Shown here piece by piece: positions 29,591-46,736 of a stretch of 64,000 nt of DNA (its first letter is position 1; each line of letters begins with the position of its first letter). Below the pieces are notes generated by a model, which did not search any database, had not been told where the DNA came from, and saw only the letters and a program-made list of their open reading frames with translations. The translations under genes were made by a program, and so were the position numbers. The stretch lies in contig CBDBLV010000005.1 in assembly GCA_965207225.1 (NCBI GenBank), positions 320,001 through 384,000 on the forward strand, written 5' to 3'. The DNA is from Dehalococcoidia bacterium. Its GTDB lineage: Bacteria > Chloroflexota > Dehalococcoidia > Plut-88900.

Positions 29591-29607
29591 CGGCCCCTCC
29601 TCATACG

Positions 29608-31264: not shown

Positions 31265-31266
31265 GC

Positions 31267-31297
31267 CACAAGTGTACGTCCATACCGTACATTTGTG
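31267..31297. promoter_or_regulatory. Inverted-repeat operator upstream of higBA
   Basis: CACAAGTGTACG-N7-CGTACATTTGTG (11/12 match). Confidence 0.6.
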
Positions 31298-31548: not shown

Positions 31549-31929
31549 TCACGATGCGGGTTGGAGTTCCTCAATCGTGACCTCTGCGTCACTGTAAGCG
31601 TCCATCGTAACCCGGCTACCCCAGATCAGTGCCATGCCCAGCAGCGGAGCGCTATCCGATTGCAACACCAGAACGTCGCTTATGCGGCTATGCCAAGAGA
31701 CTGAGCCAAGGTAGACCTGGAAATCAAATAGCTCACCGTTGGCCAGCTCGAAAGTCCGCTGACCGACGGACGGCAACCCCAGATCGCTGACGGTTCGTGG
31801 GGACAGAGTAAGGTATCCGGTGAAACCGGTGTCGAGGACCACCTCGACTGGCTGGAGACGCCCATAGCCATCCATGATGTCTACGACAATCAGGGCCTGT
31901 TGGTCGCCACTTACGCTTCCCCTAATCAC
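31549..31929 (-). CDS. Clan AA (retropepsin-like) aspartic protease
   Basis: LDTGFTGYL, LANG flap, PLLGM; homologue of 16316..16696. Confidence 0.85.
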   Translation of the reverse strand: MIRGSVSGDQQALIVVDIMDGYGRLQPVEVVLDTGFTGYLTLSPRTVSDLGLPSVGQRTFELANGELFDFQVYLGSVSWHSRISDVLVLQSDSAPLLGMALIWGSRVTMDAYSDAEVTIEELQPAS

Positions 31930-32197
31930 GGTGTACAGGCGTCCGAAAACCGCCGACGTGACTGTATGCCGCGCGATGGCCGACGCGCACCCCGTAGGTC
32001 ACTGCGTTCGGTCTACGCTTCAGCAGCCGTCGCGTGGCGGCAGCGTCTCTTGCGTCGATTTCGTAGTCGCCGGACTCGACGTCGATGACTACGAACGTGC
32101 CCCTTTCCACAGAGCCAATTCGGTCTTGGATCTTCTCCTTGTAGATGGATGCTCCAAGGGCCGTTATCTCCCCGGGGCCGTAGTCTCGATGTGCCAT
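31922..32197 (-). CDS. Small hypothetical protein, partner of the aspartic protease
   Basis: Homologue of 16060..16323; GGAGG RBS; 8-nt overlap with the protease gene. Confidence 0.75.
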   Translation of the reverse strand: MAHRDYGPGEITALGASIYKEKIQDRIGSVERGTFVVIDVESGDYEIDARDAAATRRLLKRRPNAVTYGVRVGHRAAYSHVGGFRTPVHRD

Positions 32198-32283
32198 AGC
32201 GCCCTCCTCCAATTGTTCTTTGGGAAGCGTCCTGACGACTCTAAAGATACGCTTCACAGCGTTCTTCAGTCAATCCAATGCGG

Positions 32284-32541
32284 TCAGTCTCCACGGCCCC
32301 CGTCGACTTCTTTTTCAATCCCGTCCGTTGCCGTGCCACCGGCGTGCGGAAGGTCCGAGGTGGTGTCCTCCCCCTGCGCGTCCTGACAATCCTGGGTGGC
32401 GTATCTGATCATCAGGGACATGAGACGGCGCAGCCGGTCCTCGGCGTCGGGTCCCGGCTTGGAGAATACCCTTACCCTGCCTATCTCCGAGGCTTCGCTG
32501 CGGGGCTTGGCCCGCCTTTTGTGTCCGTTGCTATCCTTCAT
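32284..32541 (-). CDS. Small hypothetical protein
   Basis: 85-aa ORF co-directional with the HTH cassette and the recombinase. Confidence 0.55.
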   Translation of the reverse strand: MKDSNGHKRRAKPRSEASEIGRVRVFSKPGPDAEDRLRRLMSLMIRYATQDCQDAQGEDTTSDLPHAGGTATDGIEKEVDGGRGD

Positions 32542-32722
32542 ATCCGTCTATTCACTCGGCCAATTTCAGGGCGCAGGTGTACCCCTGCGCTCACCCCATC
32601 GGCTTTTCGGAAGCAGCCGCTGTGCGGTATCTGCCTCTCTATCGGTCCTACTCCCTTCTCGCGTCGGTGCGAGCGTTCTTCAAAGGCTGGAGCCGTCCTG
32701 CGCGGGGTCTGCGGCCCCGCGC

Positions 32723-33028
32723 CTACTCAGCCCGGATTTGGTCCGTCGGCCCGTGAATGGGCGCGTCCGCGACTCTCATGGCGGGCAGCAGATGCCCCAG
32801 TCCCAGGTCTTGGGCGAGGTCGTGCAGGGCCAGGAGATAGCGGTAGCTGGGCCTGCTCAATCCCCTTCGCCATCTGTGCAGCGTGGTAGTGGTCGTTCCG
32901 AGCCGCCATGCGATCTCGTCCCAACTCATCCCCGACGCCTCTTTGAAGTTCTCCAGCACCTGGGGGAAGCCGTAATCCGGGAGAGCGTTTCGGCGGACGC
33001 TCCTCTGAGGTGTCCGCCCATGCGACAT
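32723..33028 (-). CDS. XRE-like HTH protein (cassette gene C)
   Basis: FKEASGMSWDEIAWRLGT-x4-LHRWRRG; homologue of 62232..62522. Confidence 0.75.
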   Translation of the reverse strand: MSHGRTPQRSVRRNALPDYGFPQVLENFKEASGMSWDEIAWRLGTTTTTLHRWRRGLSRPSYRYLLALHDLAQDLGLGHLLPAMRVADAPIHGPTDQIRAE

Positions 33029-33035
33029 GGGACCG

Positions 33036-33368
33036 CTAGACCCACCGGATGGAGGCCATGTATCCGTTGCCCATGAGGATGTCGAGGCCGCCCGGAATGA
33101 GCGCCGCGATCCTCACGAGGGCGTAGAACCCGTCGCCGTCGGGCTTGATGGGCTTGCGGCCCTTCTTCTTGGGTCTGCGCCACCTGTGCACGCGCTTCTT
33201 GTCGATGCCGATGGCGTCGGCGAAGGCGTTCCAGGTGAGGTTGCTGGCCTCCTTGAGCATTTCCAGCCGCTCGGGGAAGTCCTCGGGCAGCACGCCGCTC
33301 TGGTAGGGCGCAATGAGTCCCGCGACGTTGATGCCGGTCTCGTCGGGGTTGCCGTTACGGTGTTCCAT
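33036..33368 (-). CDS. XRE-like HTH protein (cassette gene B)
   Basis: LPEDFPERL-x-x-LKEAS-x-LTW; homologue of 61888..62220. Confidence 0.75.
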   Translation of the reverse strand: MEHRNGNPDETGINVAGLIAPYQSGVLPEDFPERLEMLKEASNLTWNAFADAIGIDKKRVHRWRRPKKKGRKPIKPDGDGFYALVRIAALIPGGLDILMGNGYMASIRWV

Positions 33369-33645
33369 CTTGCTCCTCCTCTTCGTCGAGCCTGAACAGC
33401 TCGCTGAAGTCCTCGATGCCGAGGGCCTTGAGCATCCGCCTGCGGATGCGGCCGGAGGGAGCGCGGCCTGCGGTGACCAGCTTGGACATGTAGCCGGAGC
33501 TGATGCCTATCTCCTGGGCGAGCCAGTTCTGGGAGCGGTTCAGCAGCGCCAACCGCTTCCAGAGGGACCGGGCGTCGAGGCGCACGGTCGAGCCTGCGCC
33601 CCGCCTCCGGCGGCCTCTCGGTCGGTCTGTCCTGTTCGATGTCAT
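33355..33645 (-). CDS. XRE-family HTH protein (cassette gene A)
   Basis: SQNWLAQEIGISSGYMSKL; homologue of 61652..61891. Confidence 0.8.
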   Translation of the reverse strand: MTSNRTDRPRGRRRRGAGSTVRLDARSLWKRLALLNRSQNWLAQEIGISSGYMSKLVTAGRAPSGRIRRRMLKALGIEDFSELFRLDEEEEQDGTP

Positions 33646-33712
33646 GGTTCGAAGACCTCCTTTCTGGACGGGCCGGGAGCCGCCGCTCCACTCCCGCCCC
33701 GTTCCGGGGGAT

Positions 33713-35338
33713 TCATCGGTTCCGCAGGACGTGGGCGGGTTCCCAGTCGTGGGGAGTCCTCCACGTCCTTCCCAGCGGCCCCAGGGACGCGATTGACTCC
33801 CTGTGGGATACCCACAGGGGCACGCCGACGGCGGTGCGGTTTATCTCGCGCCGGGCCACTCTCAGGAAGTTGGCTGCGGCCAGGTCGTCGTCGAAGACGA
33901 TGAGGACGGCGGGCCGTACTCCGTGGTCGTCGATGGGACCGTGAGATGAGTAGTAGCGCAGATAGGGTGCAAGGCGGGTCGCCATGGTCGAGGGTCGCAC
34001 GGCCCGTCGCTCCCACTCCAGGAAGAATGCCCACGCAGCCGGACCTCTTCCGAGGAGGCCAAAGGCGTCGGGGTTGACGGATCGCCTTCGGCCTTCGTGC
34101 CTGAAGTGGCGCGATGCCCTCTTGGGCGGGTCGATCTGGACGACCTGCCATCCCAGGGTGTTGGCCTGTCTCGCCAGGGATGCAATGAAGGCGTGAACGG
34201 CGTCGGTATGCTGGACGTTCCTGAGCAGTTGACGGGTTCTGCCGCCGGACACGTTGCGCCACTCGCACGGGGCGTCGCCGTCCTGGAGGGCGACGCTCCA
34301 TCGCCTTCTCGCCACGGCGACGGAGGTTCGGTCTCTGCGGGCCAGCAGCGCGATCCCCCGGTCAGTGAGGGCCAGGCGTCCGCTGCTCTTGATGGGCCGG
34401 GTCACGAGGCCGAACCCTTCCAGGGGGTTCACGATCTGGGAGACTCGGCGGGTGGAGACGACCATGAGGCTGGCGAGTTCGGTGCGGGACATCCAGGGCC
34501 AGTCGAAGATGAGGTCGAGAGCCCGCTTCTCAGCGGGCCTGAGCAGTACGGGCAGCGCGGGGGCCGTGTTCGTGTCTGAGTCTTCCGGCATGAGCGCCGC
34601 CGACGGAGGAGCCTCAACGGGTATCTCTCCGCCGGGTTGGAGTTGGTCCAGGGCGTTCCGCAGATCCGTCGCTGGGCCGGAGGCCGAGGGAAGCCACACC
34701 GGGTCTTCGGGCGCGGCGAGAACGGCGTCCTGCTCCAAGGCCAACAGCCCGTTCACCCTGCGGGGCGTCATCCTGCGCGCGTGCCTCAACCGTACCTCGT
34801 CGGTGGCGAGGACGAACACCGTCCCGGGCGATTCTCCCTGTCCCAGCTTCCACAGCCGTCGTGAGAATCCCGTCCTGTCGGATGCGTGTCCCTGTCTTGC
34901 GATCCCCAGGGTCCTGCCGCCGGGGAGGGTCATGGCGGCGTCGAGGGGGCCGGAGCGGTAGAGCCGCAGGCCGATGGGGAAGGCGACGGCAGCCACGGTG
35001 GAGGCCAGGCGGTAGACGACGGCGAGGGCGTCGAGCCTGTCCGTCAGGATGCGCAGCCACTGCGCGGAGACAGGCCGTGAGCGCAGAAGGTCATCGAGGG
35101 AAGAGTCCTCGGCTTTTGCAACTGCCCGCAGCCCTGTGCCGGTGATGCGGTAACGACGGGTGGGCGGGGTCAGGTCGGCGGCGTGGGGAATGGAGGCGAC
35201 AAGTCCCGCGGCCTCCAGCCTTCGGACTGTCTCGTACACCGCGCTCCTGGACATGCCCGACATGGCGGCCAACTCCAGCCGGTCGATGAAGGGCATGTCG
35301 ACAAGCTCTTGAAGCAGTTCAAGGTCGGCGGGCCTCAT
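33713..35338 (-). CDS. Replication-relaxation family protein with duplicated wHTH modules
   Basis: C-half wHTH + HT, PDAFG, FFLEWER; N-half a degenerate repeat; coupled to the T4CP stop. Confidence 0.7.
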   Translation of the reverse strand: MRPADLELLQELVDMPFIDRLELAAMSGMSRSAVYETVRRLEAAGLVASIPHAADLTPPTRRYRITGTGLRAVAKAEDSSLDDLLRSRPVSAQWLRILTDRLDALAVVYRLASTVAAVAFPIGLRLYRSGPLDAAMTLPGGRTLGIARQGHASDRTGFSRRLWKLGQGESPGTVFVLATDEVRLRHARRMTPRRVNGLLALEQDAVLAAPEDPVWLPSASGPATDLRNALDQLQPGGEIPVEAPPSAALMPEDSDTNTAPALPVLLRPAEKRALDLIFDWPWMSRTELASLMVVSTRRVSQIVNPLEGFGLVTRPIKSSGRLALTDRGIALLARRDRTSVAVARRRWSVALQDGDAPCEWRNVSGGRTRQLLRNVQHTDAVHAFIASLARQANTLGWQVVQIDPPKRASRHFRHEGRRRSVNPDAFGLLGRGPAAWAFFLEWERRAVRPSTMATRLAPYLRYYSSHGPIDDHGVRPAVLIVFDDDLAAANFLRVARREINRTAVGVPLWVSHRESIASLGPLGRTWRTPHDWEPAHVLRNR

Positions 35339-37902
35339 TACTTCGCCTCCCCGTCCTTGCGTTTGCGCCCACGGCCGCTGGTGTGCTTCCATCGTTCAGC
35401 GCCGTGGGGAGTCTTTCCCTTGGCCTCAGTCGCGGGAGCTTCGTCTCCTTTCAGCTCTCCCAAGCCTCTGCGATACTCGCTCACCTTCCCATCGCCCTCC
35501 GATTCGCCGTGGGCGATCTGCTGGGCCGATAGGGTGTATTCGGATGTTGCGGCGCGAACGCGGGCGGCGACGGCGGAGTCTCCCTCCTCGGGCTTGCGCA
35601 CCTCCATCGAGAAGGCGGGCATCCGCTCGGTGCCCACGGTGGCACGGACGTAGCAGTTATGGACGGGCAGGGACACGACGTCGTCCTCGGACACCCGGTC
35701 CTTGCCAAGCTCCCACACCAGGGTCCTGGCGTCGGAGCCCGCCACCTGGAAGACGGCCAGGCACCCTACGTTGGCGAGGATGGTGTCCCGCATGGTGCGG
35801 GAGAGGTCGTCCAGCTTGGCCAGGCTCTGGGTCGCCAGCACGAAGGACGCTCCGAACTTCCCAAGCTCGCTGAGCATCGACTCGTAGTCCACGCCGGGCA
35901 TGGACTGCATCTCGTCCACGACGACCAGCGCGCCGCGACGTTCCCTGAGAGACAGGCTTCCCTGCTCCCGTATCACGGCGTCCACCAGGTTCAGGAGCGA
36001 CGCGCCCACCAGGGCGGCCACGTCCCTGCCCACCGTTCCCTGGGAGGTGGAGACCAGCAGCACGCCGCCGTCGTGGATGGTCCTTCTCAGGTCGATGGTG
36101 GAGCGGCGCTGCCCGAGGATGGCCCTCGCCCGCTTGGAGGACGCGTAGTAGGAGAGACGGGTCTGGACGGGGGCCAGGGCCTCCGCCTTGTACTGGCGGC
36201 CCCACTTGCCGAAGTCCCTGGCCCACCACTCCAGCAGGTAGGGGTCGGAGACCCTCTTGCGCACCTGCTTGGCGAACTCATCGTCCGAGAGCAGCTTCAG
36301 GCCGTCGAGGATGGTGTACTGCTGTTCGGCCTCCATCTGCTCGTTGGCCTCGTGGAGGGTCTTGACGGTCTGCTCGAGGATGGACTGCATCCTCGGCCCC
36401 CACTGTTCCCAGAGGCCCCTGGCGACCCGGACCACAGAGTCAGCGGTGCGGTCCCGGTCGGTGAAGACGCGGGTGTCCAGCAGGTTGACGCCGGGGGAGC
36501 GGGAGGCGTCGGACAGGTCGAGAAGGCGCACCCGGTTGACGAGGGACTCTGGGACCTGTTCGAGGATGCCCGCCACCAGGTCGGTGTGGGGGTCGATGAC
36601 GACGATGGCGTCGGAGTCCCTGCCTGCCGCCTTCTCCTTCATCTTGTGGGCGACGATGTGGTGCATGAGCGTTGACTTGCCCATGCGGGTGCGGGCCACG
36701 TAAAGGTGGTGCCGCCTGAGCAGGTCGTCGGGGAAGTGGACGGGCATTGGTTTGCCCGCCGTGGTGTCGCCCACCAGCGCCCCGGCTCTGATGCCTCTCG
36801 CCGATGGGATGAGACCCTTCGCTCCCGACCGCTCCACCAATGGCGTCTCGTCGCCCGCTCCGGGCGGGTGCCACAGGCAGGCTGCCTCTCGGACTCCCAG
36901 CACGCTGCGCCTCCCCAACAGGCCGGCGCCTGAGGGGTGAAGCACGTTGGAGTCAAGAACCACCCGCTTGACCTTCCCCACCTTGAGCCTGGCTCCGGCG
37001 GGGTTGTCGAAGTGGCGGTAGGCGGCGGCCACCGGCTCAAGCAGCTCGGCCGCGCGTTGATGTCCCGTGCCGGAGGGCATGATCGCCGTCACCTGTATCT
37101 CTGCGTCGAAGGCGATGCGGGAGACCTTCTCCTTGATGAGCAGGGGGTCTTCAACCCGGTTCCTCGCCTTCTTGAAGCGGTGCCATGCCCAGCCACCGAT
37201 GCCAAGCCCCAGGGCCGTTCCGATGCCAAGCAGCACCGTCTTCCACGTCTCGCCGCCCTGCACCCACAGGTAGCCCTGGAGGGCGGCCAGTGCCCCGATG
37301 CCGAGGACGGCCATGGTCACCCCGTCCATCTGGAGCGGCTTGGTCTGGTAGGTGTAGGAGGGCTCCCGCTGCTCCTGGCCGGGCCGCTTGTGGGCCTTCT
37401 CCATGTGGTGCTGGGACCAGTCGGGGCCGAGGGAGTTCAGCTTGAGTTGAGCCACCACCCGCTCCCCCTCGTGGAGGGACGACAGCGCGCCCATGAGGGC
37501 GATGAGGGGGTCGGAGCCGGGGTCGAGGAGGTCGTCGTCGCGGAAGGTGCGCAGGGGGACATACTCGGGGCCGTCGGCCCTGAGCGTCATCGACCACGCC
37601 TGCTCGCCGTCTCCCAGGCGCAAGGGATCGTTGTTTGGGTCCACCTTCTGTATGCGGGCCTGGGGATAGTGGGCGGCGATCTGGCCGCGTACCACCCGGT
37701 CGTCGATGCAGCGGGCCATCAGCGTCACGCCGTCCATGTCCCCGGCAAGCTCCAGGGAGAAGGGTTCGGGCACGGCGATGGACTGGAGCAGGTTCTCCAC
37801 GCCCAGCAGGGTGCGCTCCCCCGTCCTCGGCGGCGTCACCGCAAGCAGCGCCGGGGTCTTGTCGGGGCCTCCAAACAGTCTTCGTATCGGGTTCTGTTTC
37901 AT
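35338..37902 (-). CDS. Type IV coupling protein (VirD4/TraD-like ATPase)
   Basis: TM pair, HLYVARTRMGKS, IDPH, VVDEMQ, LATQ, ILANVG. Confidence 0.85.
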   Translation of the reverse strand: MKQNPIRRLFGGPDKTPALLAVTPPRTGERTLLGVENLLQSIAVPEPFSLELAGDMDGVTLMARCIDDRVVRGQIAAHYPQARIQKVDPNNDPLRLGDGEQAWSMTLRADGPEYVPLRTFRDDDLLDPGSDPLIALMGALSSLHEGERVVAQLKLNSLGPDWSQHHMEKAHKRPGQEQREPSYTYQTKPLQMDGVTMAVLGIGALAALQGYLWVQGGETWKTVLLGIGTALGLGIGGWAWHRFKKARNRVEDPLLIKEKVSRIAFDAEIQVTAIMPSGTGHQRAAELLEPVAAAYRHFDNPAGARLKVGKVKRVVLDSNVLHPSGAGLLGRRSVLGVREAACLWHPPGAGDETPLVERSGAKGLIPSARGIRAGALVGDTTAGKPMPVHFPDDLLRRHHLYVARTRMGKSTLMHHIVAHKMKEKAAGRDSDAIVVIDPHTDLVAGILEQVPESLVNRVRLLDLSDASRSPGVNLLDTRVFTDRDRTADSVVRVARGLWEQWGPRMQSILEQTVKTLHEANEQMEAEQQYTILDGLKLLSDDEFAKQVRKRVSDPYLLEWWARDFGKWGRQYKAEALAPVQTRLSYYASSKRARAILGQRRSTIDLRRTIHDGGVLLVSTSQGTVGRDVAALVGASLLNLVDAVIREQGSLSLRERRGALVVVDEMQSMPGVDYESMLSELGKFGASFVLATQSLAKLDDLSRTMRDTILANVGCLAVFQVAGSDARTLVWELGKDRVSEDDVVSLPVHNCYVRATVGTERMPAFSMEVRKPEEGDSAVAARVRAATSEYTLSAQQIAHGESEGDGKVSEYRRGLGELKGDEAPATEAKGKTPHGAERWKHTSGRGRKRKDGEAK

Positions 37903-37950
37903 TTCTGTTACTCCTCCCTATGTATGGGTCTCTTCTGCGTTTTCGCCGTC

Positions 37951-40173
37951 CTATCGCTGTCCGCCCGGCCTCCACTCGATCACTTCCGTCTCCTCCGGGG
38001 TGGCCTCGATGCGGACGGGGAAGCGGTGTCCCTTCGCCAGCAGGAGGCCATCTCCACGGGGGCATGAGAGCAGCCACCTCTGGAGGTCTTCGGGCAGGTC
38101 GAAGGCGTCACCCACGGTGCCTATGGCCGCCGCGTCCTGCTGCAAGAGCAGCTTGAAGGCGGCGTTCTGGAGAAGCGCCCTCCCCGAATGGCCGGTGATG
38201 GTTCTCGACGAGTCCTCGGACAAAAGGTCCTGGACGTCCTGGGTGATGAACTGAAGCCCCAGCCGGTGTTTCCTGGCGCGTTTCGCCATAGACACCATGA
38301 AGGCCGCGCCCTCGGGGTGCTGCATGATGCTCCATACCTCGTCCACCACCAGCAGCCTCGGCTTGGGGTTCTGGGCGGCCGCCGCCCACACCGTCTCGGT
38401 GCAGACCATCGCCGCTGCGGGACGGAGCTCCGGCTCCAGCAGCCGCAGGTCGAAGACGGTCACCAACGCCTCGTTGCCGAGCAGGTCGTCCCCCTCGTCG
38501 GAGAGGAGGTTGCGCAGGCTGCCGGTGGCGAAGGGCCGAAGTAGGTGCGCTATGTCAGGGGCTTCACCTTCCAGATACTTGTAGAAGTCTCGGAAGCCGG
38601 TGCGCTCCCGGCTGTGGGCGTAGTAGCCCGCCAGGGCGTGGTCGAGGGACGCCCTTCGCTCCGCGCCGAGGCTCTCTCCCACCATCACCTCGATGAGCCG
38701 CCTGAGGCTGCCGATGCGCTGTAACAGCTCCTCGTCGTCTCCCCGGTCGATGACGAAGGGGTTCATGCCCTGGCCCTCAACTCCGGGGGACAGCACACGG
38801 CCTCCGGCGGCGCGAGCCATGTCCGCGTACTCCCCTTCAGGGTCGATGACGTAGGCGGTGACGCCGCGCGTCAATCCCCTGAGCACGCCCAGCTTGGTTG
38901 CGAAAGACTTGCCGCTGCCCGACCGTGCGAGGACTGCCGTGTTGGCGTTGAGATGGGTGCCGTCCCAGGGGTCGTAGACCACGGGGGAGCAGGCCCGCAT
39001 GTCGATGCCGTAGAGGGTGCCGCTTCTTGTGTCCAGGTCCGGCGGCGAGAAGGGGAAGAGCCTCGCAAGGCTGGACGTGTCCAGGGTCCTCCACTCGGCC
39101 ACGGCGTTCAGGGCCAGGGGCAATGTCGATAGCAGCCCCTCCCGCTGCCTGAACGCCAGGTTGTCCAGCTTGCCGAGAGTGGCGGCAAAATGGGCCTTGG
39201 CCCTCTGGGTCATCTCCTTCAGCGACGCCTCGTCCTTCGCGTGGAGGGTCACGGATAAAGAGGAGTGAAATAGGCGCTCCCTGCCCCTCTGCACCTCGTT
39301 CCTGAGCCTGGTCACGTCCTCCAGGGCGATCTCGGCCTCGGGCGACATGGTTCGCCCCCGCTTGAAGGAGAGTGATTGCGCCGACTCGAATCTGACCTTC
39401 TGCCATTCGAGGGTGCGGGCCGCCTGCTCGGCGGGGATCGGCCCCAGATGAATGGACAGGTCCATGGGCGCTCCCGCCGCCATGAGTCCTTGCAGGAACC
39501 CCGGGGCCAGCGATCTCGGCCACTTGCCCAGGTGAAGGGAGCGGATGAGATGCGTGCCAATGCGCATGTCGCGCCGGTTGACCTGCACCTCGATCTCTTC
39601 GTTCTCGTCCACGTCAACAGGCGAGCCACCCAGGGCTGCGGCTACAAGGAACATTCGAAGCTGCCTGCCCCTGAGGGGGTGGACGGAGAGTCCGGCCCTC
39701 GCCAGCAGACCCCGCAGCTCGTCGATGCGGGCGTGCCCGCAGACGGCGTAGAAGCGCCGGTCCAGGATGCCGTCCCGGGCCTCCAGGTCGGTCAGCAGCC
39801 GGTTCAGCGAGTCGGCGGCGGCTCTCGTCTGCGGCGGCAGGTCGTCGGGTTGGGCCGCTTGCAGCTTCTCCCGCAGACCGCCAAGGCGCGGCGGGTGCTG
39901 GCGCATGAGCAGCTGCACCGGGAAGTCGAGGGCGTTGAGCGCCCCGGCGAAGGCCCCCAGCTTCGGCTCGTCGATCTCAAGCCCCATCACCTCGCACACT
40001 CCCACCTTCACCCCGTCCAGCCGCACGGGGCCGTCCTCCTCCAGGTGCGACAGCATGAAGAAGAAGGGCAGACCGGGCGGCGGCTTCGGAACCGGAGCGG
40101 TCCCTTCGGGCGGCGCGGCGTCCGCCGTCCGCTCCGTGTTTCGTCTCTTGATTCGTTCAAGCAGCTCTTTCAA
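37951..40173 (-). CDS. VirB4-like conjugative ATPase
   Basis: ARSGSGKS, IDPEGEY, VVDEVW, KRARK, ITQDV-x-D; TTG start after AAGGAG. Confidence 0.9.
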   Translation of the reverse strand: MKELLERIKRRNTERTADAAPPEGTAPVPKPPPGLPFFFMLSHLEEDGPVRLDGVKVGVCEVMGLEIDEPKLGAFAGALNALDFPVQLLMRQHPPRLGGLREKLQAAQPDDLPPQTRAAADSLNRLLTDLEARDGILDRRFYAVCGHARIDELRGLLARAGLSVHPLRGRQLRMFLVAAALGGSPVDVDENEEIEVQVNRRDMRIGTHLIRSLHLGKWPRSLAPGFLQGLMAAGAPMDLSIHLGPIPAEQAARTLEWQKVRFESAQSLSFKRGRTMSPEAEIALEDVTRLRNEVQRGRERLFHSSLSVTLHAKDEASLKEMTQRAKAHFAATLGKLDNLAFRQREGLLSTLPLALNAVAEWRTLDTSSLARLFPFSPPDLDTRSGTLYGIDMRACSPVVYDPWDGTHLNANTAVLARSGSGKSFATKLGVLRGLTRGVTAYVIDPEGEYADMARAAGGRVLSPGVEGQGMNPFVIDRGDDEELLQRIGSLRRLIEVMVGESLGAERRASLDHALAGYYAHSRERTGFRDFYKYLEGEAPDIAHLLRPFATGSLRNLLSDEGDDLLGNEALVTVFDLRLLEPELRPAAAMVCTETVWAAAAQNPKPRLLVVDEVWSIMQHPEGAAFMVSMAKRARKHRLGLQFITQDVQDLLSEDSSRTITGHSGRALLQNAAFKLLLQQDAAAIGTVGDAFDLPEDLQRWLLSCPRGDGLLLAKGHRFPVRIEATPEETEVIEWRPGGQR

Positions 40174-40192
40174 CTCGGTTGTCTCCTTCGTG

Positions 40193-40429
40193 CTAGGGGG
40201 TGGGGAACGGGCCGATGCCGCTGCGCAGCAGTGCGGCGACGGCCTTGGCCAGCAGCACCAGCACAAGGCCCACGGCTGCCATGACCACGGCGGTCCTGGC
40301 CCTGCCGCCGCCACGCTCCTCCGCGCCCTCGGCCATCAGGACGAAGCCCGCCCAGACGACGGCGAAGACGGCGAGTCCGGCGGCGGCGTAGGCCATTGCG
40401 GTCAGCACCGCGTCGAAGGCGGCCAGCAT
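40193..40429 (-). CDS. Pilin-like (VirB2/TrbC-type) two-TM protein
   Basis: Two hydrophobic helices around G...RAR; lies in the T4SS operon. Confidence 0.6.
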   Translation of the reverse strand: MLAAFDAVLTAMAYAAAGLAVFAVVWAGFVLMAEGAEERGGGRARTAVVMAAVGLVLVLLAKAVAALLRSGIGPFPTP

Positions 40430-40506
40430 CGCTTCCTTCTCCGCCGGGGCCGCGCCGACGGTCGCCAGCGCAGCCCAGGCAAGGAGGATTGCCGTCCATG
40501 CCCGTC

Positions 40507-42186
40507 TCACCAGGGCCACTCCCATCCCAACCGGCGGAACCAGTCGGTCAGGTCGCCGCCGGGCGTCTGCTCGGCGGGCGGGTCTTCGGGCTCAGGCTGA
40601 GGCAGTGCCAGCAGGGCAAAGGCGTCGTCGGAACCGATTTCCGAGGCCAGCGATAGCGACTCTTCCCTTGTCCTGGTGAGGGGTTCTCGGTCGGTCGTCT
40701 CAGCCTTGACGTGCTCGGGATGGACGATGGTGAGGGTCACGTCCCTCTGCACCGTCTCGCCGGGCACCGACAGGGTGGCGGAGACGGTGTGCTCCGTGGT
40801 AGTTCCGTCATCGTTGGTGACGGTGACCGTTTCGCTGACGGTTTGGGTCGTCCCCGGCCTCCACAGACTCACCGTCTCGGTGCGCTTCTCCGTCCGCTCC
40901 GGGTGGTGGGTGAGCGTCGTCAGCGGAGGGATGGGGATGCGGAGGGTAGCCTCAAGACTCACGTCCAGGCTCACGGCGTGAATCGCCTCGCCGGTGGGCG
41001 CGGCGAGCCGGAAGCTCGTCTCCCCGTCGGGGACGAATGCGACGCTCGCGGTCGATGCTCCCGTCGTGGCAACGACCGTTCCCGTGATGGCAGTCACCCC
41101 GGCGTCCATGAGCGCCGTCTCGGTGACGCTCTCGTGTCCGGCCACCGTCTGAAGCTCGACCGGGTGCTCGACGGCGTCAACGCAGTCGGACTCGACGACG
41201 CCGGTGACGATCCCCGGCGTCCAGCCGAAGGAGATCACGTTCAGGTTGCACAGCTCGCCCTCGACTTCGGGGAGCGGGTACGGTATCCGGTCATGCTCCC
41301 AGGTGAGCGCTCCCGCCTGTCCCAGCGCGTCCTCCCAGGAAACGGCAAAGGAGGGCATTGGTCCGTTGAGGGGCAGCGAATAGTCGATGCTCTCTCCCTC
41401 TGTCAGCGTCGCCGAGCCCCAGAAGCGCAGGGTCGTGCCCTGGCCGCCGCCGAAGGCTCTCACCCGGATGTCCAGGTCGGTGGCCGCTCTCAGGGTCACT
41501 GCGGCCCGGTCGCCGGAGACGGTAAGCGCCTCGACGAATATCCGCCGTCCCTCCACCGGCTCCGTGACCTCGAAGTCGATCTCGTCCCGCCAGGGCTCGT
41601 GGCCGTCGGCAAGGACCGACTGGGGGACGGTCGCGGCCATCGCCACTGCGACGACCGCCATGACCGCTATCCAGCCCTTCGGTCCGTGGCCCTGGCTGTC
41701 GCGGCCCGCCTTGCGGGAACGGCGCTTGCCGAACCAGCAGTGGGGTCGGAATGGCTTTCTTTCACCGTTGCGCTTCTGCTTCCTGCGGCGGCGCAGCCTC
41801 TTGAGGGTCTTTCCGGCCCGCCTCGCCATCAGCCGCAGGGGGCCGGGGCCGCCCTTCACCGGCTGCAACGTGACCGGCGGCTCAGGACGCACCAGTTGGG
41901 ACACAGGCCCGGCGTAGACCCTGGCTCCCAGCCGGTACTTGAGCAGGTCGGCGGCCACCAGCGGCAGCCGCCGACCTCCTATCTTTCCCACCACTACTGC
42001 GATGCCCATCAGCCCGAACAGGACGGCGAATCCCATCCGCACCTCGTTCGGCCCAACGGGGGCGTAGCGGTATGCGCCGTAGGACAGGGCGCACACCGCC
42101 ACCACCGCCACGATCTGCGGGAAGGTGAACCACAGCAGCACCCTGTCCTCGGCCTGCACGTGGGTCGGTACCTCGTGTTCTCTCAT
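40507..42186 (-). CDS. PrgI-like membrane protein fused to a large beta-rich domain
   Basis: VP-x-x-VQ-x-EDR...T-x-x-Q plus 2 TMs upstream of VirB4; Thr/Val-rich C-terminal region. Confidence 0.6.
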   Translation of the reverse strand: MREHEVPTHVQAEDRVLLWFTFPQIVAVVAVCALSYGAYRYAPVGPNEVRMGFAVLFGLMGIAVVVGKIGGRRLPLVAADLLKYRLGARVYAGPVSQLVRPEPPVTLQPVKGGPGPLRLMARRAGKTLKRLRRRRKQKRNGERKPFRPHCWFGKRRSRKAGRDSQGHGPKGWIAVMAVVAVAMAATVPQSVLADGHEPWRDEIDFEVTEPVEGRRIFVEALTVSGDRAAVTLRAATDLDIRVRAFGGGQGTTLRFWGSATLTEGESIDYSLPLNGPMPSFAVSWEDALGQAGALTWEHDRIPYPLPEVEGELCNLNVISFGWTPGIVTGVVESDCVDAVEHPVELQTVAGHESVTETALMDAGVTAITGTVVATTGASTASVAFVPDGETSFRLAAPTGEAIHAVSLDVSLEATLRIPIPPLTTLTHHPERTEKRTETVSLWRPGTTQTVSETVTVTNDDGTTTEHTVSATLSVPGETVQRDVTLTIVHPEHVKAETTDREPLTRTREESLSLASEIGSDDAFALLALPQPEPEDPPAEQTPGGDLTDWFRRLGWEWPW

Positions 42187-42204
42187 TGCTTTCTCTCCCT
42201 TCAC

Positions 42205-42489
42205 CTATTCCTCGGGGGTGGGTGTGGCTGGGTTGGGCACGTCGATCTCCACGGGGTTGCCCACCACCGCGTTCATCACCAGCTCGACGACCCCGTAGGC
42301 CACCATCGCCAGGACGATGCCCGCCAGGGCGGTCATCATGGCGCTCTTGCCCCGCTCCATCTGGTGGGGCGCTCCCGATGCCGTCAGGTACAGGTAGGCC
42401 CCGTAGATGAAGAAGCCCACGCCCACGACTCCCACGATCCCCAGCAAAATGCCCACCAGGTTCGATATGGTCTGTGTCAGGTCTTCCAT
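42205..42489 (-). CDS. Pilin (VirB2/TrbC family)
   Basis: IYGAYLYLTASG-x-P-x-Q-x-x-RGK-x-x-x-x-x-ALAG. Confidence 0.8.
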   Translation of the reverse strand: MEDLTQTISNLVGILLGIVGVVGVGFFIYGAYLYLTASGAPHQMERGKSAMMTALAGIVLAMVAYGVVELVMNAVVGNPVEIDVPNPATPTPEE

Positions 42490-42645
42490 CTGTTTTCGCT
42501 CCTCTCGTTCTTCGAGCCTTTCGCTCGTCTCTATCGGTCTCGTTCTCGTTGTCCTTCTAGCTGCACATCTCTCCCCCTCCGTCGTCGCGTTGGTCGGCGC
42601 ACTCTTTGCCGCGCCTTGGTGATTTCGTTGTCCTTGTTGTTGAGG

Positions 42646-43626
42646 TCACTCGTTGGCGCTCCTAGGAGCCTCGCCGCCCGCGTCTCCACCGCCCGACGGG
42701 GTCGCCATCGAAGCCGCCGAGCTGAGGCCGCCAGCCGCAGCCGACAGCCCCGCGCTGGCCGCAACCGCTCCGACCGCAACGCCTCCAGGCCCGCCCGCCG
42801 CTCCCCCAGCCATCAGCCCGATGGTCCGGGCCGACCGCACCATCGACGCGGGCAGGTTCATGCCGAAATAGAGCATCGACAGCCAGCTATCGAAGGTGCC
42901 GGCGTTGCCAAGCAATGACGGCACCCTGGTCGCCATGTAGACGAAGGCCAGACTCATCAAGAGCTTCCAGACCAGGTCCTGCACCGGCTCGAAGGCCGCT
43001 ATCTGCGCCACCTCGTTCAGGAACCCGAACCCCAACGCCAACGCGATGAGCTGGATCGCCTGCTGGAAGGTGGTCGTCATGAAGAGCCTGAGCCAGTGCC
43101 TTCCCCATCCCGCCGTGTGCGGCAGAATCCACAGACCCAGGGCTATAGGAGCCAGGGCGAGAAGAATGTCGATCAACGCAAGGCGTAGGATCATCTGCAC
43201 GATGACGTAGAGGACGAAGAAGCCGTAGACCAGGTAGAGAAGGGCCAGCAGCAACGCCATGCCCACGCTCCCCGCCTGAACTGCGGTGAGCAGAGTCTTG
43301 AGGGTGGAGCGGAGCATGTCCCCGGCGGTGACGTTCAGAGATACCGCGACGAAGCCGGACACGGCGTCGGCAACGTCGATGACCAGCGCGCACCACCACA
43401 GGGAGGACGCGGCGGCCACAAGCCCCAGCACCAGACGGGGGACCATCTCCCGCCATCCGGCCTGACGGCTGCCAAGGTGCTCGCTGACGATGAACGTGAG
43501 GCCCATCCAGCCCAGGATCACAATGAGCGCGCCCGACGTGACGGCCCAGACGACCATCCACGCCTGCTGGACAAGGTCGTGGGCGTAGGTGAGGTCGGGA
43601 GGAGTCCCGGTGAGGATGTCGCTCAT
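42646..43626 (-). CDS. VirB6/TrbL-like polytopic membrane protein
   Basis: Multiple TMs, LAP-x-AL-x-x-WILP-x-T, Gly/Ala-rich tail. Confidence 0.75.
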   Translation of the reverse strand: MSDILTGTPPDLTYAHDLVQQAWMVVWAVTSGALIVILGWMGLTFIVSEHLGSRQAGWREMVPRLVLGLVAAASSLWWCALVIDVADAVSGFVAVSLNVTAGDMLRSTLKTLLTAVQAGSVGMALLLALLYLVYGFFVLYVIVQMILRLALIDILLALAPIALGLWILPHTAGWGRHWLRLFMTTTFQQAIQLIALALGFGFLNEVAQIAAFEPVQDLVWKLLMSLAFVYMATRVPSLLGNAGTFDSWLSMLYFGMNLPASMVRSARTIGLMAGGAAGGPGGVAVGAVAASAGLSAAAGGLSSAASMATPSGGGDAGGEAPRSANE

Positions 43627-43629
43627 GAG

Positions 43630-44244
43630 CTAACTCCCCTCACAGTTGTCGGCGTCCTCCCCCGAGGCCCGCTCAACGACACCGCACAGCGTCCCGTGGA
43701 CTCCCTCGATCACCCAGCCGGCTGCGGCCCTGGCCCAACGGGAGGGGTTGAGGGCGCTCAGAATCTTGTCCCAGATGCGTCCCGGCTCGTGGATGGGGAC
43801 GACGGCATAGAAGTCGCCCCGGTTGCCGTCCTCCGCCACCGCCAGCATGACCAGCAGGTAGGCGCGGTCCGGGTCGAGGTCGGGCTGCTCGTCCAGCTTG
43901 GGATACTCCCAGGAGTACTCCCAGCCGTCGGAGTGCTTCTTCTCGCCGCCCCGGACCCGGTACATGGCGGATATCCAGTCGCCGGTGTCGGCGTCTCTGA
44001 CGGCGTAGAAGAGGTCTTGGAGCTTGCGGTCGAAGAGGGGCCGTGCGACGAACTCGCCGCCCTTCTTGCGCTCGACGAATTCTCTGTCGGTGTTGACCAG
44101 GGTGATGTCGCCAGCGGGCGGCGATTGGGCCAGGGCGAGGTTGCTGGTGGGGACGGCCACAAGCGCCGCCAGCAGCAGCGCAATCGCCGTCGGAATGAGC
44201 CGCCCTGCCGGCCGGAGCTTCGATTTCTGCGCCAAGACGTTCAC
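43630..44244 (-). CDS. Secreted hypothetical protein, first gene of the T4SS operon
   Basis: Signal peptide ending ALA-Q; GAGG RBS before GTG. Confidence 0.65.
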   Translation of the reverse strand: MNVLAQKSKLRPAGRLIPTAIALLLAALVAVPTSNLALAQSPPAGDITLVNTDREFVERKKGGEFVARPLFDRKLQDLFYAVRDADTGDWISAMYRVRGGEKKHSDGWEYSWEYPKLDEQPDLDPDRAYLLVMLAVAEDGNRGDFYAVVPIHEPGRIWDKILSALNPSRWARAAAGWVIEGVHGTLCGVVERASGEDADNCEGS

Positions 44245-44524
44245 CTCTCTGCGGTTTCGTGCGGCCTATCGGTTTGGGCCGCCGCAGGAGAGTGTGAACA
44301 AATCAAACGCCGAAAAAGACCCCACGCATGGTGGCACCATCCATGCCCTCTTATCTGAGGCCCGTTTCGTGCAGTATTGGGGGTGTACAGGAAATGGACT
44401 TTTGTGACTGAGTGGTCAAAGTCGTGATTTCGTAGCTAAATCAGGGGCAAAACCCCCTCTACAGGAGGTGAACGGTGAGCAATCTGATGAAAGGGCGGAG
44501 TCCGGTCTCCAATGACAAAAAGAG

Positions 44525-44617
44525 GCTTGAGGTGGGGGTGCATGACGCGGCCAAAATCGACGGCCCGATGACAAAAACGGCCGAAAAGTCCGCTTGAGGT
44601 GGGGGTGCGTTACGCGG
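44525..44617. repeat. 17-bp direct repeat x2 in the divergent intergenic region
   Basis: GCTTGAGGTGGGGGTGC at 44525-44541 and 44592-44608, each followed by N3-ACGCGG and preceded by ATGACAAAAA. Confidence 0.75.
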
Positions 44618-44693
44618 GGCGAGAGATCGGGCGAATCACGGACTTGGTGGAATTCATAGCTGGAACGAGTTTTCGGAGAAGGAGGAAATTGCC

Positions 44694-45551
44694 ATGAAGA
44701 CGACCGAACACGGCATCGAGGACAGCAGAGACGTGGAGAACATGTACCACATGAGGCTCATGACGTTGCTGCAAGAGCTGGTGCGGGAGCGGGGATACAA
44801 GGGCGCGGCGCGGGTGTTGGAGATCGACCAGCGCACGGTGGCCGAGAGCGCCAGGACGGGACGGCTGTCGCGGCGGATGCGGGAGGCCCTGGAGCGGGCC
44901 TTGCAGGAGGGCGTGGGTTCTGCGGCGGCCCGCCAGCGAGAGCGCAACGACGCCTTGGAGGAGCGCCTGGGGGAGTTGGAGAACGCGGTGGAGTCGCTGG
45001 GCAAGGAGGCGCGCAGGCGGCTGTCCAGGGTGGAAGGCGCGGTGGAGGCTCTGGCAAAGGAGGGCACAGTGAGTCCGAAGACGACCGGGGCCGGTCACGC
45101 CGGCGCCGGTCCCTCGGAGCAGAGCGCTGATAAAGGAGAGGATGCAGGGTCAGTGAGCGAAGGAAGTCCTGCGTCAAAGTCCTCGATGCGGCGCGAGTAC
45201 CCCGAGCTGGTGACCCTTGAGCCCGCCGATGACGACGAGGAGGTCTTCGGAGACGCCTGGTCCCTGATCGTCCGGTGGCGGGCGTTGAAGGAGTCTCACC
45301 CCAACGAGGGAAGGGGTTTTGAGTGGCTCGTCGAGCGAGAAAGTCTGCTGGAGGTAGAACTGGCGCTCCTCGAAGAACACGGGATGACGCTCCCCCCGGA
45401 GAAGCAGCCCCTGCACGGCCTCGACCGCAGCGGCCAGGTCAGCTGGCGCAGGAAGGCCCTCTTCGACACGCGGAGAGCGCGGGCCAGGCGCGAGGTCGTG
45501 ACCAAGGTGTGGCGGGCGCTCACTCTGAGGTGGCGGCGGCCCTCGCAGTAG
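44694..45551 (+). CDS. Hypothetical protein (N-terminal HTH-like + coiled coil)
   Basis: AAGGAGG RBS; KGAARVLEIDQRTV; heptad-rich middle. Confidence 0.75.
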   Translation: MKTTEHGIEDSRDVENMYHMRLMTLLQELVRERGYKGAARVLEIDQRTVAESARTGRLSRRMREALERALQEGVGSAAARQRERNDALEERLGELENAVESLGKEARRRLSRVEGAVEALAKEGTVSPKTTGAGHAGAGPSEQSADKGEDAGSVSEGSPASKSSMRREYPELVTLEPADDDEEVFGDAWSLIVRWRALKESHPNEGRGFEWLVERESLLEVELALLEEHGMTLPPEKQPLHGLDRSGQVSWRRKALFDTRRARARREVVTKVWRALTLRWRRPSQ

Positions 45552-45719
45552 CGCCCGGCGTTGCGGATGCGGGAGTGAACTTTGAAGCAATTTTCGGGGT
45601 GGGGGCATGCGTGGGGTCTTTTCGGCGTCGGAGACCTGCGATAATTGCCTCACTGTTTGGCTTTCTCCAAGGTTTCCGACCACAGAAACCTGGGTGCGTG
45701 ATCCCTGTTGCACGGGCTT

Positions 45720-46215
45720 CGCCCAAGAGGGAATGCTGGCAATGCGGAGTTTGACGTTGGTCCTTCGCAACCAGCGCGGGCCGATTCGACGGAGTTGACG
45801 CAAGGGCCTCCGTCCCCGGCTCAGTCCGGCGGTTGAAGTTTGACGTTGGTCCCTCACCCGCAGGGCATAGGTCTGACGGCTGGGGTTGATCGCCGTATCC
45901 GTCGGGCAAAAGGGGACGGGTGCGCGTTCAGCGTATCGCCCCCCGCAAACTGGTCGAAAGCGCGTCTGTCGCTTCGACCGGTTCAGCACGTCTGCGGCAC
46001 AACCGACATGCGGTTGGGTCGCAGCTTCGACACGCGCCGGTCTGCCGTCTCAAGCAGGCTGGCCGCTTCACGTCTCGCAGCTCTTCCCCACTGACCGACT
46101 TCACCTTGGGCGAGCTGCGTCTTCTTTCACCCCGGTCTCCCCTGCGTTCGCATCGCTGGCGGCCCGGGTGCGTCTTCGGAACGGAGTCAACGGCACACAA
46201 CACAGAAGGAGGTAA
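45720..46215 (+). other. Highly structured non-coding region (structured RNA leader or ssDNA element)
   Basis: Consecutive hairpins with G-T pairs favouring the + strand; 16-bp direct repeat. Confidence 0.5.
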
Positions 46216-46220
46216 CGCAC

Positions 46221-46736
46221 ATGGACGAATCAAGGACACAGGACAACGGAGAAGGAGGTACGAGCATGGCGGAACGGTACACCGGACCCAGCGCGGCGCG
46301 GATCGCAGACCTGCTGGCGCATCGCGTCAGCTTCGACAGAGGCTGGTTCTGGACCAGCACGGCGGTGTGCCACGGCGGGAAGTCCGACGGGCTGGCGTTT
46401 CGGCAGCGACCCGACGGCAACGGCATCGACGTACGGTGCCACACACGGGGCTGCGGTCGCGGCGTGATAGTCACCGAGCTTGAGGCCCTCACCGGTCTGC
46501 CGATCTGGACGGCCTACGAGCCGGTCAGGGACGCGGCGGTTGGGGCTGAGGCCAAGAAACCCTGGTGGAAGCGGAAGAAGGTCGTGGTGGCCGGGGTCGT
46601 CGCCCTGGTCGTCGCCGCGCCGCTGCTCACCCTCGACCTGGAGCTGTTCTTCCTGAACCTGTTCGGTCTGGGCATCGGCTGGCTGCTGCTCAGGCGGTTC
46701 ATGCCCCGTCGTTCGGCGCGGAGGTTCCGTCGCTGA
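46221..46736 (+). CDS. Hypothetical protein, Zn-finger-like domain + C-terminal TM helices (alternative start 46266)
   Basis: CH...CH-x-x-x-C; hydrophobic C-terminus; strong RBS. Confidence 0.7.
   Translation: MDESRTQDNGEGGTSMAERYTGPSAARIADLLAHRVSFDRGWFWTSTAVCHGGKSDGLAFRQRPDGNGIDVRCHTRGCGRGVIVTELEALTGLPIWTAYEPVRDAAVGAEAKKPWWKRKKVVVAGVVALVVAAPLLTLDLELFFLNLFGLGIGWLLLRRFMPRRSARRFRR

Follow-up and report, generated by a model that had tools for sequence, protein, structure and literature searches.

Which protein would process the DNA in a conjugation-like operon that carries no relaxase of the HUH type? The question arises from a stretch of 64,000 nucleotides, referred to here as the window, which corresponds to C5:320001-384000 in the 4.03-Mb, five-contig and 92.3% complete genome of a sponge-associated Chloroflexota bacterium. 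Between positions 33713 and 44244 the window harbours genes of a type IV secretion system (T4SS), and the operon that they form is read here, with a probability of about 0.78, as the mating-pore and DNA-processing module of a Dehalococcoidia integrative conjugative element (ICE) that spans 27294-59132 and would work as in the mechanism proposed below. Judged by its sequence, the last product of the operon is a relaxase of the MOBC class (PD-(D/E)XK type), a known class, with a putative nicking function. An ICE with a MOBC relaxase, a monoderm-type pore and a serine integrase is of a known general kind; newly described are the doubled relaxase, a conserved hairpin region as candidate origin of transfer (oriT) and the tiers of ICEs and mobilizable islands within one genome. 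The evidence comprises a conserved gene set, an element with sharply defined ends of which a distantly related host holds a near-identical copy, and the membership of the last gene product in family PF13814; added to these are a predicted restriction-nuclease-like C-terminal domain with invariant acidic residues and the absence of the other relaxase families searched.

The transfer operon

Families were assigned by Pfam and NCBIfam profile searches of the main open reading frames (ORFs) among the 128 in the window of at least 90 amino acids (aa); the ORFs of the operon are read on the minus strand. The operon consists of eight tightly packed ORFs, from 43630-44244 down to 33713-35338. A scan for VirB4, with one genome per species, yielded 377 relatives, and the counts given here refer to the best 80 loci, all titled Dehalococcoidia or Chloroflexi metagenome-assembled genomes and with VirB4 proteins 80-90% identical; some chromosomes hold 4-5 copies. 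Gene presence in these VirB4-selected loci was counted by tblastn. In order of reading, the operon contains:

43630-44244, minus strand: first operon gene, a secreted or membrane-anchored 204-aa protein with an N-terminal signal or transmembrane segment (78/80 loci)
42646-43626, minus strand: VirB6/TrbL-like polytopic membrane protein (PF04610, E 2.8e-5; 24.4 bits, just below the 25.9 cut-off; 79/80 loci, median identity 88%)
42205-42489, minus strand: VirB2-like pilin 1 (T4SS_pilin PF18895, E 4.7e-13; 79/80 loci)
40507-42204, minus strand: 565-aa membrane protein with a PrgI/VirB3-like N-terminus and a large extracytoplasmic domain (79/80 loci)
40193-40525, minus strand: VirB2-like pilin 2, with a signal peptide and two hydrophobic helices (PF18895, 2.2e-4; 78/80 loci)
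37951-40314, minus strand: VirB4 ATPase, its start uncertain, the ORF overlapping the pilin gene upstream
35338-37902, minus strand: VirD4-type coupling protein of 854 aa (TrwB_AAD_bind, 4.5e-6, above cut-off; TraG-D_C; 79/80 loci)
33713-35338, minus strand: relaxase candidate of 541 aa with two tandem modules, each a winged helix-turn-helix (wHTH) plus a PD-(D/E)XK-like part

The ORFs and profile matches agree with the order given in a preliminary description of this DNA, namely secreted protein, VirB6-like protein, pilin, PrgI-like protein, pilin, VirB4, VirD4 and replication-relaxation protein, and the helix-turn-helix (HTH) cassette that it placed after the operon is represented by an HTH_31 gene at 32723-33028. 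The VirB4 protein matches conju_CD1110 with 231 bits (2.5e-68; cut-off 325) and VirB4_plasma with 156 bits (7e-46; cut-off 590), along with the Pfam models P-loop_TraG, AAA_10 and TraC_F_IV. Pilin 1 is also recognised by a Mycoplasma ICE pilin-like model, NF045849 (Mbov_0395 family, 1.6e-9). The PrgI match (PF12666) covers residues 1-101 only of the 565-aa protein (E 0.0075, 17.2 bits, cut-off 27), and no family match was obtained for residues 102-565 or for the 204-aa protein, whose best ESM Atlas score of 0.76 is uninformative. The relaxase candidate is present in 77 of the 80 loci. Since the gene set recurs in loci chosen by VirB4 alone, the arrangement of the operon is not due to chance. 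Parts of the integrase, VirB4/pilin 2, 565-aa and 204-aa genes also occur in 22 contigs of an RNA-library run, 90-99% alike; these derive from relatives of this copy, and as carry-over of DNA is possible no claim of expression is attached to them.

A doubled relaxase candidate of the MOBC class

The final ORF, 33713-35392, combines a MarR-type wHTH with a Replic_Relax domain (PF13814) that scores 28.7 bits, above the cut-off of 25.3. Translation most likely starts at 35338 because relatives measure 541-545 aa, and a start there overlaps the stop codon of the coupling protein by one base. The C-terminal half alone attains 26.7 bits with PF13814, and paralogues in the same genome 34-43 bits. CONJscan recognises PF13814 as MobC (PMC5357655), and the equivalence of the two is taken from that paper. 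MOBC is one of nine described relaxase classes (PMC12857230, PMC11104534) and is related to restriction endonucleases: its prototype, TraX of pAD1, has an N-terminal wHTH and a restriction-endonuclease-like active site and binds five direct repeats 70-120 bp from nic, and no covalent intermediate is reported for it (PMC12857230).

The preliminary description had noted the lack of any HUH or MOB relaxase, allowing that a canonical one might lie in the unseen part of the element. No such enzyme came to light: PF03432, PF03389, PF08751, PF01076, PF07514 and PF02486 (HUH, MOBH and MOBT) give 0 matches in the whole genome, 92.3% complete. As to MOB relaxases the statement is wrong, given that PF13814 denotes MOBC. 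The relaxase family is large: at 50% identity it falls into 1290 clusters with E <= 0.001, of which 282 reach E <= 1e-30, and the candidate is matched in 74 of 301 sampled Dehalococcoidia species genomes (37/192 genera). In PHROGs it finds only a generic regulator.

The AlphaFold (AF2) model of the whole relaxase is of high confidence (pLDDT 89.7, pTM 0.86), and fold searches with this 541-aa model returned only winged-helix proteins, the wHTH matches reaching Z 10-12. For this reason the C-terminal domain was folded separately (pLDDT 83.6). Apart from Foldseek, the fold search with this model is dominated by PD-(D/E)XK or restriction-type nucleases, including Cdn1 (Z 8.4), the nickase N.BspD6I (Z 8.0), Bax1 (Z 7.7) and NgoMIV (Z 7.1); of the 50 matches listed, at least 30 bear the title of a nuclease (restriction, nicking or other) and three are clearly unrelated. 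Among 28 aligned relatives and paralogues (28-76% identity) H377, P423-D424, E441, E443 and R445 are invariant, all located in the C-terminal module, where the acidic pair reads E441-x-E443. From this conservation we infer that the acidic residues form the active site and play a catalytic role. The PD-(D/E)XK-type processing enzyme anticipated in the preliminary description is in keeping with both the nuclease matches of the predicted domain and the invariant PD...ExE signature.

The N-terminal half (1-245) is homologous to the C-terminal half (262-541) over 209 columns, with an hhalign probability of 97.8% and E 1.2e-12; on this alignment, the relaxase candidate is an internal tandem duplication of a wHTH-nuclease module. 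The ExE signature is retained only in the second module and is missing at the aligned place of the N-terminal copy; one half looks inactive. Full-length relatives down to 30% identity align across both halves, so the doubled form is the norm of the family.

One of the closest parallels is found in pTEF1 of Enterococcus faecalis, a pAD1-like plasmid typed MOBC in PLSDB. As in the window, a 'replication-relaxation family protein' is encoded there directly after the coupling protein and downstream of a VirB4-like gene; its PF13814 score is 28.5 bits against 28.7 for the window relaxase, and the window relaxase has in common with pAD1 TraX and the pTEF1 protein the succession of a wHTH and a restriction-nuclease-like domain. 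The enterococcal MOBC protein counts 261 aa and that of the window 541, as the wHTH-nuclease module is doubled in the latter. The window element also stands apart from pAD1 and pTEF1 in its host phylum and in its integrated lifestyle with a serine recombinase.

These comparisons bear on a different interpretation, in which the Replic_Relax protein is a replication initiator, maintenance protein or transcription factor and the nicking enzyme lies elsewhere, for example at 44694-45551 or 33113-33691. The Pfam family takes its name from plasmid replication and relaxation, and its members were initially interpreted as HTH-fused transcriptional regulators (PMC3424549), two wHTH domains dominate the fold searches with the whole protein, and the two proteins just mentioned, which lack a family, co-vary with it. 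Set against this are the nuclease-like C-terminal domain with its invariant PD...ExE signature and the gene position, which is that of the MOBC gene of pTEF1; an initiator or regulator in place of a relaxase is therefore regarded as quite improbable. Relaxases of ICEs commonly double as replication initiators, and the two roles are compatible.

Ends and probable movement of the element

The operon lies in a GC-rich island of approximately 32.5-52 kb (GC 0.64-0.69 against 0.58-0.62 around it), which forms part of a larger unit:

27294-59132: whole ICE, 31.8 kb including a 1.9-kb insertion sequence (IS), both ends sharp
27293-28921, minus strand: large serine recombinase (integrase), its stop codon at the left end of the element

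The recombinase carries the domains Resolvase (PF00239, 1.4e-24), Recombinase (PF07508, 8.5e-25) and Zn_ribbon_recom (PF13408, 5.4e-11), and a serine recombinase is matched downstream of the operon in 51/80 loci. The left end is defined by G211, a genome of another GTDB family, in which a 9125-bp match of 97.83% identity begins exactly at 27294, at the stop codon of the serine recombinase; the match, G211:C1:422877-432000 at a contig end, corresponds to window 27294-36411. The right end is defined by three more copies in the same genome, 100% identical up to 59132, from where each continues into a different flank. Across five copies the ends are exact and the flanks all different. Both junctions display 'CA', which is probably the 2-bp crossover core expected of a serine integrase. 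The search for tRNA genes in the window found none, and hence no tRNA target site for the element. An integrase is present, the ends are defined and the element recurs in flanks that differ; in this the locus agrees with the earlier proposal of a conjugation operon within an integrated element.

The host DNA beside the G211 copy shows only 65-79% nucleotide identity to this genome, in short pieces. Transfer between families is suggested because the element end is near-identical and the host genes are only distantly similar; as far as sequences tell, nothing here speaks more strongly for a recent move of the element than its 97.83% identical copy in a distant host. Mis-binning of a mobile contig end into G211 offers an alternative explanation. 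Contig pieces nearly identical to the element were also met with in sponge metagenomes from at least two other studies.

These observations have a bearing on whether the window copy is an inactive remnant of a mobile family. An IS has inserted in the right arm and other copies in the genome are visibly broken; on the other hand the window copy has kept every gene of the operon, the integrase and both ends in intact form, the IS is intergenic, and near-identical pieces recur in the metagenomes just mentioned. A remnant is considered unlikely, if less so than an initiator role for the Replic_Relax protein.

A reduced pore in a host that probably lacks peptidoglycan

VirB7-VirB10 belong to the outer-membrane core of diderm systems; in monoderm systems a wall hydrolase and a VirB8-like protein are normally found in addition. 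Among the main window ORFs scanned with Pfam and NCBIfam there is no VirB8-11 and no hydrolase family, in accordance with the gene content reported earlier, and the small set of pore genes recognised by these profiles fits the reduced T4SS then described. In particular, no hydrolase of the PrgK/TrsG/CD419 type and no VirB8-like protein is detected by profile, the 204-aa and 565-aa proteins not having been folded and a VirB8-like fold being possible in them. MraY (TIGR00445) and the transpeptidase domain of penicillin-binding proteins (PF00905) give 0 matches in this 92.3%-complete genome, against matches in 10-12 of 14 control genomes. The host is thus probably without peptidoglycan, in which case a wall hydrolase would be pointless. 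In monoderm or wall-less hosts it is usual for a T4SS to lack VirB7-11 and a wall hydrolase.

Similar gene sets have been described elsewhere. The Patescibacteria T4SS reported in 2025 comprises VirB4, PrgI/VirB3-like and VirB6-like proteins and arrays of PF18895 pilins separated by non-pilin genes; according to PMC12102498 it is related to MPF_FATA, has no recognised VirB8, rarely VirB1, and is mostly relaxase-free. MOBC is the commonest relaxase where one is present (58/109), and Chloroflexota are the sister lineage of Patescibacteria (PMC12102498). To judge by profile matches, which for VirB4, VirB6 and PrgI lie under the cut-offs, the window operon has the same gene set as that system (PMC12102498). 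For this reason the designation 'strongest candidate for a new system' in the preliminary description was overstated, the genes apparently fitting a monoderm, MPF_FATA-like and Patescibacteria-type T4SS (PMC12102498). Its reservation that the operon might fall in a described class with a known mechanism proved half right, since the class is described and the mechanism of MOBC is poorly understood. In contrast to the Patescibacteria T4SS, the window family always links a coupling protein and relaxase to its pore genes, all within an element that has defined ends and an integrase, and from its genes the window system looks fully conjugative.

The likeness does raise the possibility of a T4SS that is not, or no longer, conjugative and serves cell-cell interaction, DNA uptake or protein delivery, with Replic_Relax as a regulator or another nuclease. 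The set of pilin, PrgI, VirB6 and VirB4 resembles the Patescibacteria system, which is mostly relaxase-free and thought to be co-opted (PMC12102498), and large surface proteins are encoded on the element. However, in 77-79 of the 80 loci the genes for the coupling protein and the relaxase candidate show translational coupling to those of the pore, the block resides within an element with an integrase, exact ends and a 97.8% copy in another family, and the same genome has islands that keep only coupling protein, relaxase and integrase. Such islands are sensible only for DNA mobilisation, and a non-conjugative T4SS appears very improbable, the least credible of the interpretations considered.

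Mycoplasma ICEs and elements of the Tn916/CTn type (MPF_FATA/MPF_FA) are the source of the best NCBIfam models for VirB4 and pilin 1, and these Mycoplasma and Firmicutes modules are also small pore sets in one-membrane hosts. Unlike them, the window proteins score under the curated cut-offs. Mycoplasma ICEs use a DDE transposase, and the window element a serine recombinase. The class of the window relaxase also differs from the MOBT relaxase of Tn916 (PMC12857230). Conjugation has been left virtually undescribed in Chloroflexota, and a literature search brought up no publication dealing with an ICE of the T4SS type from Dehalococcoidia or Chloroflexi.

A candidate origin of transfer and its co-variation with the relaxase

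Upstream of the operon, on its divergent side, the element contains two conserved non-coding regions, and genes on either side of the operon encode proteins that may assist the relaxase:

44245-44693: divergent promoter region with a conserved core at approximately 44370-44500 and direct repeats at 44509-44550 and 44565-44617
44694-45551, plus strand: 285-aa coiled-coil protein without family match (73/80 loci)
45640-46150, plus strand: conserved non-coding multi-hairpin region, oriT candidate or alternatively a structured RNA (found by blastn in 69/80 loci)
33113-33691, minus strand: 192-aa protein without family match (59/80 loci), candidate relaxosome accessory protein

The divergent region 44245-44693, whose conservation was scored over 66 sequences, recurs with 75-86% identity beside islands without a T4SS. 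The repeats situated close to the candidate oriT are reminiscent of the five direct repeats to which TraX binds (PMC12857230). The 285-aa protein is a candidate relaxosome accessory protein or regulator.

In an alignment of 24 sequences, 45640-46150 folds into successive hairpins, part of which are tandem units present in different numbers from locus to locus. The paired fraction amounts to 95.1% of cells, compared with 39-44% when the partners are slid, and 25 compensatory pairs are observed against 10.3 +/- 2.3 in shuffles (0 of 500 shuffles reach 25). The structure is specific to the plus strand: it includes 520 G-U cells, and mirroring it on the other strand raises the unpaired cells from 183 to 644. 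A search of Rfam (evalue mode, window 26000-57000) returned no match. As a coding sequence the region was rejected, for of six candidate ORFs within 45323-46239 none is kept open in relatives. The preliminary description had proposed 45552-46220 as one of three targets for nicking assays, a well-placed choice in that it holds this oriT candidate.

Co-variation was expressed as Spearman's rho of pairwise distances over 27-51 loci. Relaxase distances follow those of the C-terminal half of the coupling protein (0.63-0.71), the 285-aa protein (0.55-0.69), the 192-aa protein (0.68-0.81) and the hairpin region (0.49-0.65; 0.61-0.65 for the N-terminal relaxase module). For the genes in between the values are low (VirB4 0.24-0.32, VirB6 0.01-0.10), as they are for 46866-47369 beyond (0.07-0.14). 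The 285-aa protein behaves alike, with 0.69-0.73 for the coupling-protein C-half and 0.08-0.25 for VirB4 and VirB6. Two groups emerge. The first embraces both halves of the relaxase, the C-half of the coupling protein, the 192-aa and 285-aa proteins and 45640-46150, with mutual rho of 0.49-0.84; the second comprises the N-half of the coupling protein, VirB4, the 565-aa protein, VirB6 and gene 46866-47369 (0.38-0.68). Across the two groups rho is mostly 0.0-0.3, the exception being the coupling-protein N-half with 0.26-0.50 towards group one. As the groups alternate one-two-one-two along the element, the swap of a single cassette provides no explanation. We read group one as a relaxosome module and group two as a pore module, an exploratory result because the pairs of loci are not independent. 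It is on account of its co-variation with the relaxase and the coupling-protein C-half that 45640-46150 is put forward as the oriT candidate. A structured RNA on the plus strand is an alternative; with its many G-U pairs on one strand, the region is no less compatible with RNA than with single-stranded DNA.

Proposed mechanism

The serine recombinase would excise the element as a circle. The doubled wHTH-nuclease protein, acting as a MOBC-type relaxase, would bind and nick at the multi-hairpin region 45640-46150, probably aided by the proteins encoded at 44694-45551 and 33113-33691. The C-half of the coupling protein would recognise the relaxosome and its N-half dock on the pore, which would be built from VirB4, the VirB6-like protein, the PrgI-like protein with its large ectodomain, the two VirB2-like pilins and the secreted protein. 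This pore would move the DNA across a single membrane, a hydrolase being unneeded as the host is apparently without peptidoglycan, and toxin-antitoxin pairs at both ends would stabilise the element.

Several points weigh against this scheme. The matches of VirB4, VirB6 and PrgI all fall under the curated cut-offs. The fold matches of the C-terminal domain have middling Z scores (5.2-8.4), and Foldseek with the same model gave no match at E <= 0.001. Compared directly, the profile of the window relaxase and the pTEF1 protein give only a weak match (probability 51%, E 1.5e-4, 97 columns), and tblastn of the relaxase against PLSDB plasmids yielded no match. CloDF13 (NC_002119), tried as a MobC reference, has a fragmented mob annotation with 0/6 ORFs matching PF13814, and pTEF1 was used instead. 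Even for the MOBC prototype a covalent DNA intermediate is not known to have been demonstrated (PMC12857230). The case for the candidate oriT is built on conservation, structure and co-variation in loci that are related and not independent, and the contigs of four sequencing runs hold no information on excision.

A broader proposal, tentative and more doubtful than probable, is that the window represents a distinct and very successful Dehalococcoidia conjugation system, with a pseudo-dimeric MOBC relaxase, a dedicated accessory protein, a co-evolving tandem-hairpin oriT and a pilin-bearing, hydrolase-free pore that is the fully conjugative counterpart, possibly the source, of the Patescibacteria T4SS. 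If so, the tandem-hairpin oriT would co-evolve with the relaxase and with the substrate-recognition half of the coupling protein, and the system would support a hierarchy of hitchers that fills a sizeable part of the genome, in tiers with coupling protein, relaxase and integrase; with relaxase and integrase; and with non-coding regions, regulators and integrase only. The gene set in the window forms a bridge between conjugation in monoderms and the T4SS of Patescibacteria. Of all relaxase classes MOBC is the least well understood, with a binding site far from nic and no covalent intermediate seen (PMC12857230); the present family supplies many natural MOBC variants, a two-module relaxase and a co-varying candidate oriT and accessory protein. 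Annotation pipelines poor in relaxases will label such elements 'non-mobilizable'.

Related elements in the same genome

The genome contains 31 PF13814 matches, all above the cut-off, and tblastn reveals 30 relaxase paralogues, 37 serine recombinases, 12 coupling proteins and 18 relatives of the 285-aa protein. Seven of the 30 paralogues sit in full T4SS operons (one with a split VirB4) and five in compact units of coupling protein, relaxase and integrase, in which the coupling protein is 61-62% and the relaxase 48-49% identical to those of the window and a serine recombinase follows. The remaining 18 have no coupling protein and are 30-33% identical (one 48%), 15 of them with an integrase within 12 kb; overall, 27/30 have a serine recombinase within that distance. 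A hierarchy of mobilizable hitchers is the likely interpretation. The streptococcal IME_Class_8 consists of a VirD4 coupling protein, a MobC/PF13814 relaxase and a serine integrase (Coluzzi et al. 2017, PMC5357655), and this triad and its compact order are repeated in the five islands and at the 3' end of the window operon. Unlike IME_Class_8, the window element has its own mating pore, making it an ICE and not a mobilizable island, and the proteins are far diverged.

The T4SS operon is present in about eight copies, and examples of element or paralogue sites are C2:75393-82714, C3:24907-32225, C4:866743-880720 and C5:1036637-1043958. The copy at C1:181142-193395, aligned to window 33721-45968, encodes proteins 99-100% identical from the secreted protein through VirB4, with a coupling protein only 88% and a relaxase 59% identical. 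Its nucleotide identity falls inside the relaxase gene, from 94% down to 34769 to 75% for 33721-34556, which implies a recombination break between the two relaxase modules.

Three loci, C2:122835-134258, C2:436635-441489 and C5:2070349-2074197, keep both non-coding regions, relatives of the 285-aa protein and the regulator with four HTH domains and are without T4SS or relaxase; one retains a 61% identical integrase. They have either arisen by deletion or represent elements that can be mobilised in trans only. Broken copies include C1:156032-158431, where VirB4 has two in-frame TGA codons, C5:2020317-2024717, where VirB4 is split by approximately 2.2 kb (C5:2020317/2023719), C2:2-4540, with genes in several pieces, and C4:722329-723295, with VirB6 in two frames. 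Errors of long-read assembly could lie behind some of them.

A second island adjoins the ICE from 59133 onwards (C5:379133-388679). Its serine recombinase ORF (59072-60709, minus strand) reaches 60 nt into the right end of the ICE and is followed by HTH genes and, just beyond the window, by a 673-aa Replic_Relax paralogue, with relaxase fragments at C5:385266-386191. Elsewhere, six pairs of serine recombinases are arranged tail to tail, approximately 100-110 bp apart (C3:23312-26415, C3:57442-60527, C3:85317-88423, C4:734115-737227, C5:1960483-1963598 and C5:2030768-2033880). It looks as if elements insert preferentially beside the integrase end of a resident element.

Cargo and neighbouring genes

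The other features of the element are as follows:

28950-29351, minus strand: PIN-domain toxin of an addiction module beside the integrase (PF01850, E 2.1e-18)
29714-32377: variable cargo of lower GC (approximately 0.59-0.61), without family matches
32723-33028, minus strand: HTH_31 (Xre-type) regulator downstream of the operon (PF13560, E 8e-6; 43/80 loci)
46221-46736 and 46866-47369, plus strand: two small genes without family match, present in 47/80 and 53/80 loci
47830-48978, plus strand: regulator with four HTH_3 domains on the divergent side (PF01381, E 6.9e-28, 4 stretches)
49153-55883, minus strand: two large surface proteins, one of 1654 aa with Calx-beta and DUF11 domains, the other of 560 aa and cadherin-like
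56251-58139, minus strand: IS of 1889 bp with a DDE_Tnp_1_4 transposase (56507-58069), intergenic, with a 4-bp duplication
58251-58957, plus strand: AF2212-like antitoxin and PIN toxin pair at the right end (PF01954, 6.2e-9; PF01850, 1.8e-9)

ORFs 29372-29989 and 30977-31483 have no homologues in the 80 loci by tblastn, and one metagenome contig links 29714 to 32377 through 40 other letters. The surface-protein genes show 88-92% nucleotide identity to other copies in the genome and no match in the 80 loci, which extend only about 1.1 kb into the gene; they are cargo of the copies in this genome, and possible adhesins. Comparison with an uninterrupted copy of the element places the IS site between genes. 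At least seven further copies of this IS exist in the genome at 99.9-100% identity, two of them in tandem at C5:461718-465501. In the host flank to the left of the element, 21570-24540 encodes two tandem acetyl-CoA hydrolase/transferase paralogues of 493 aa each, with approximately 74% nucleotide identity.

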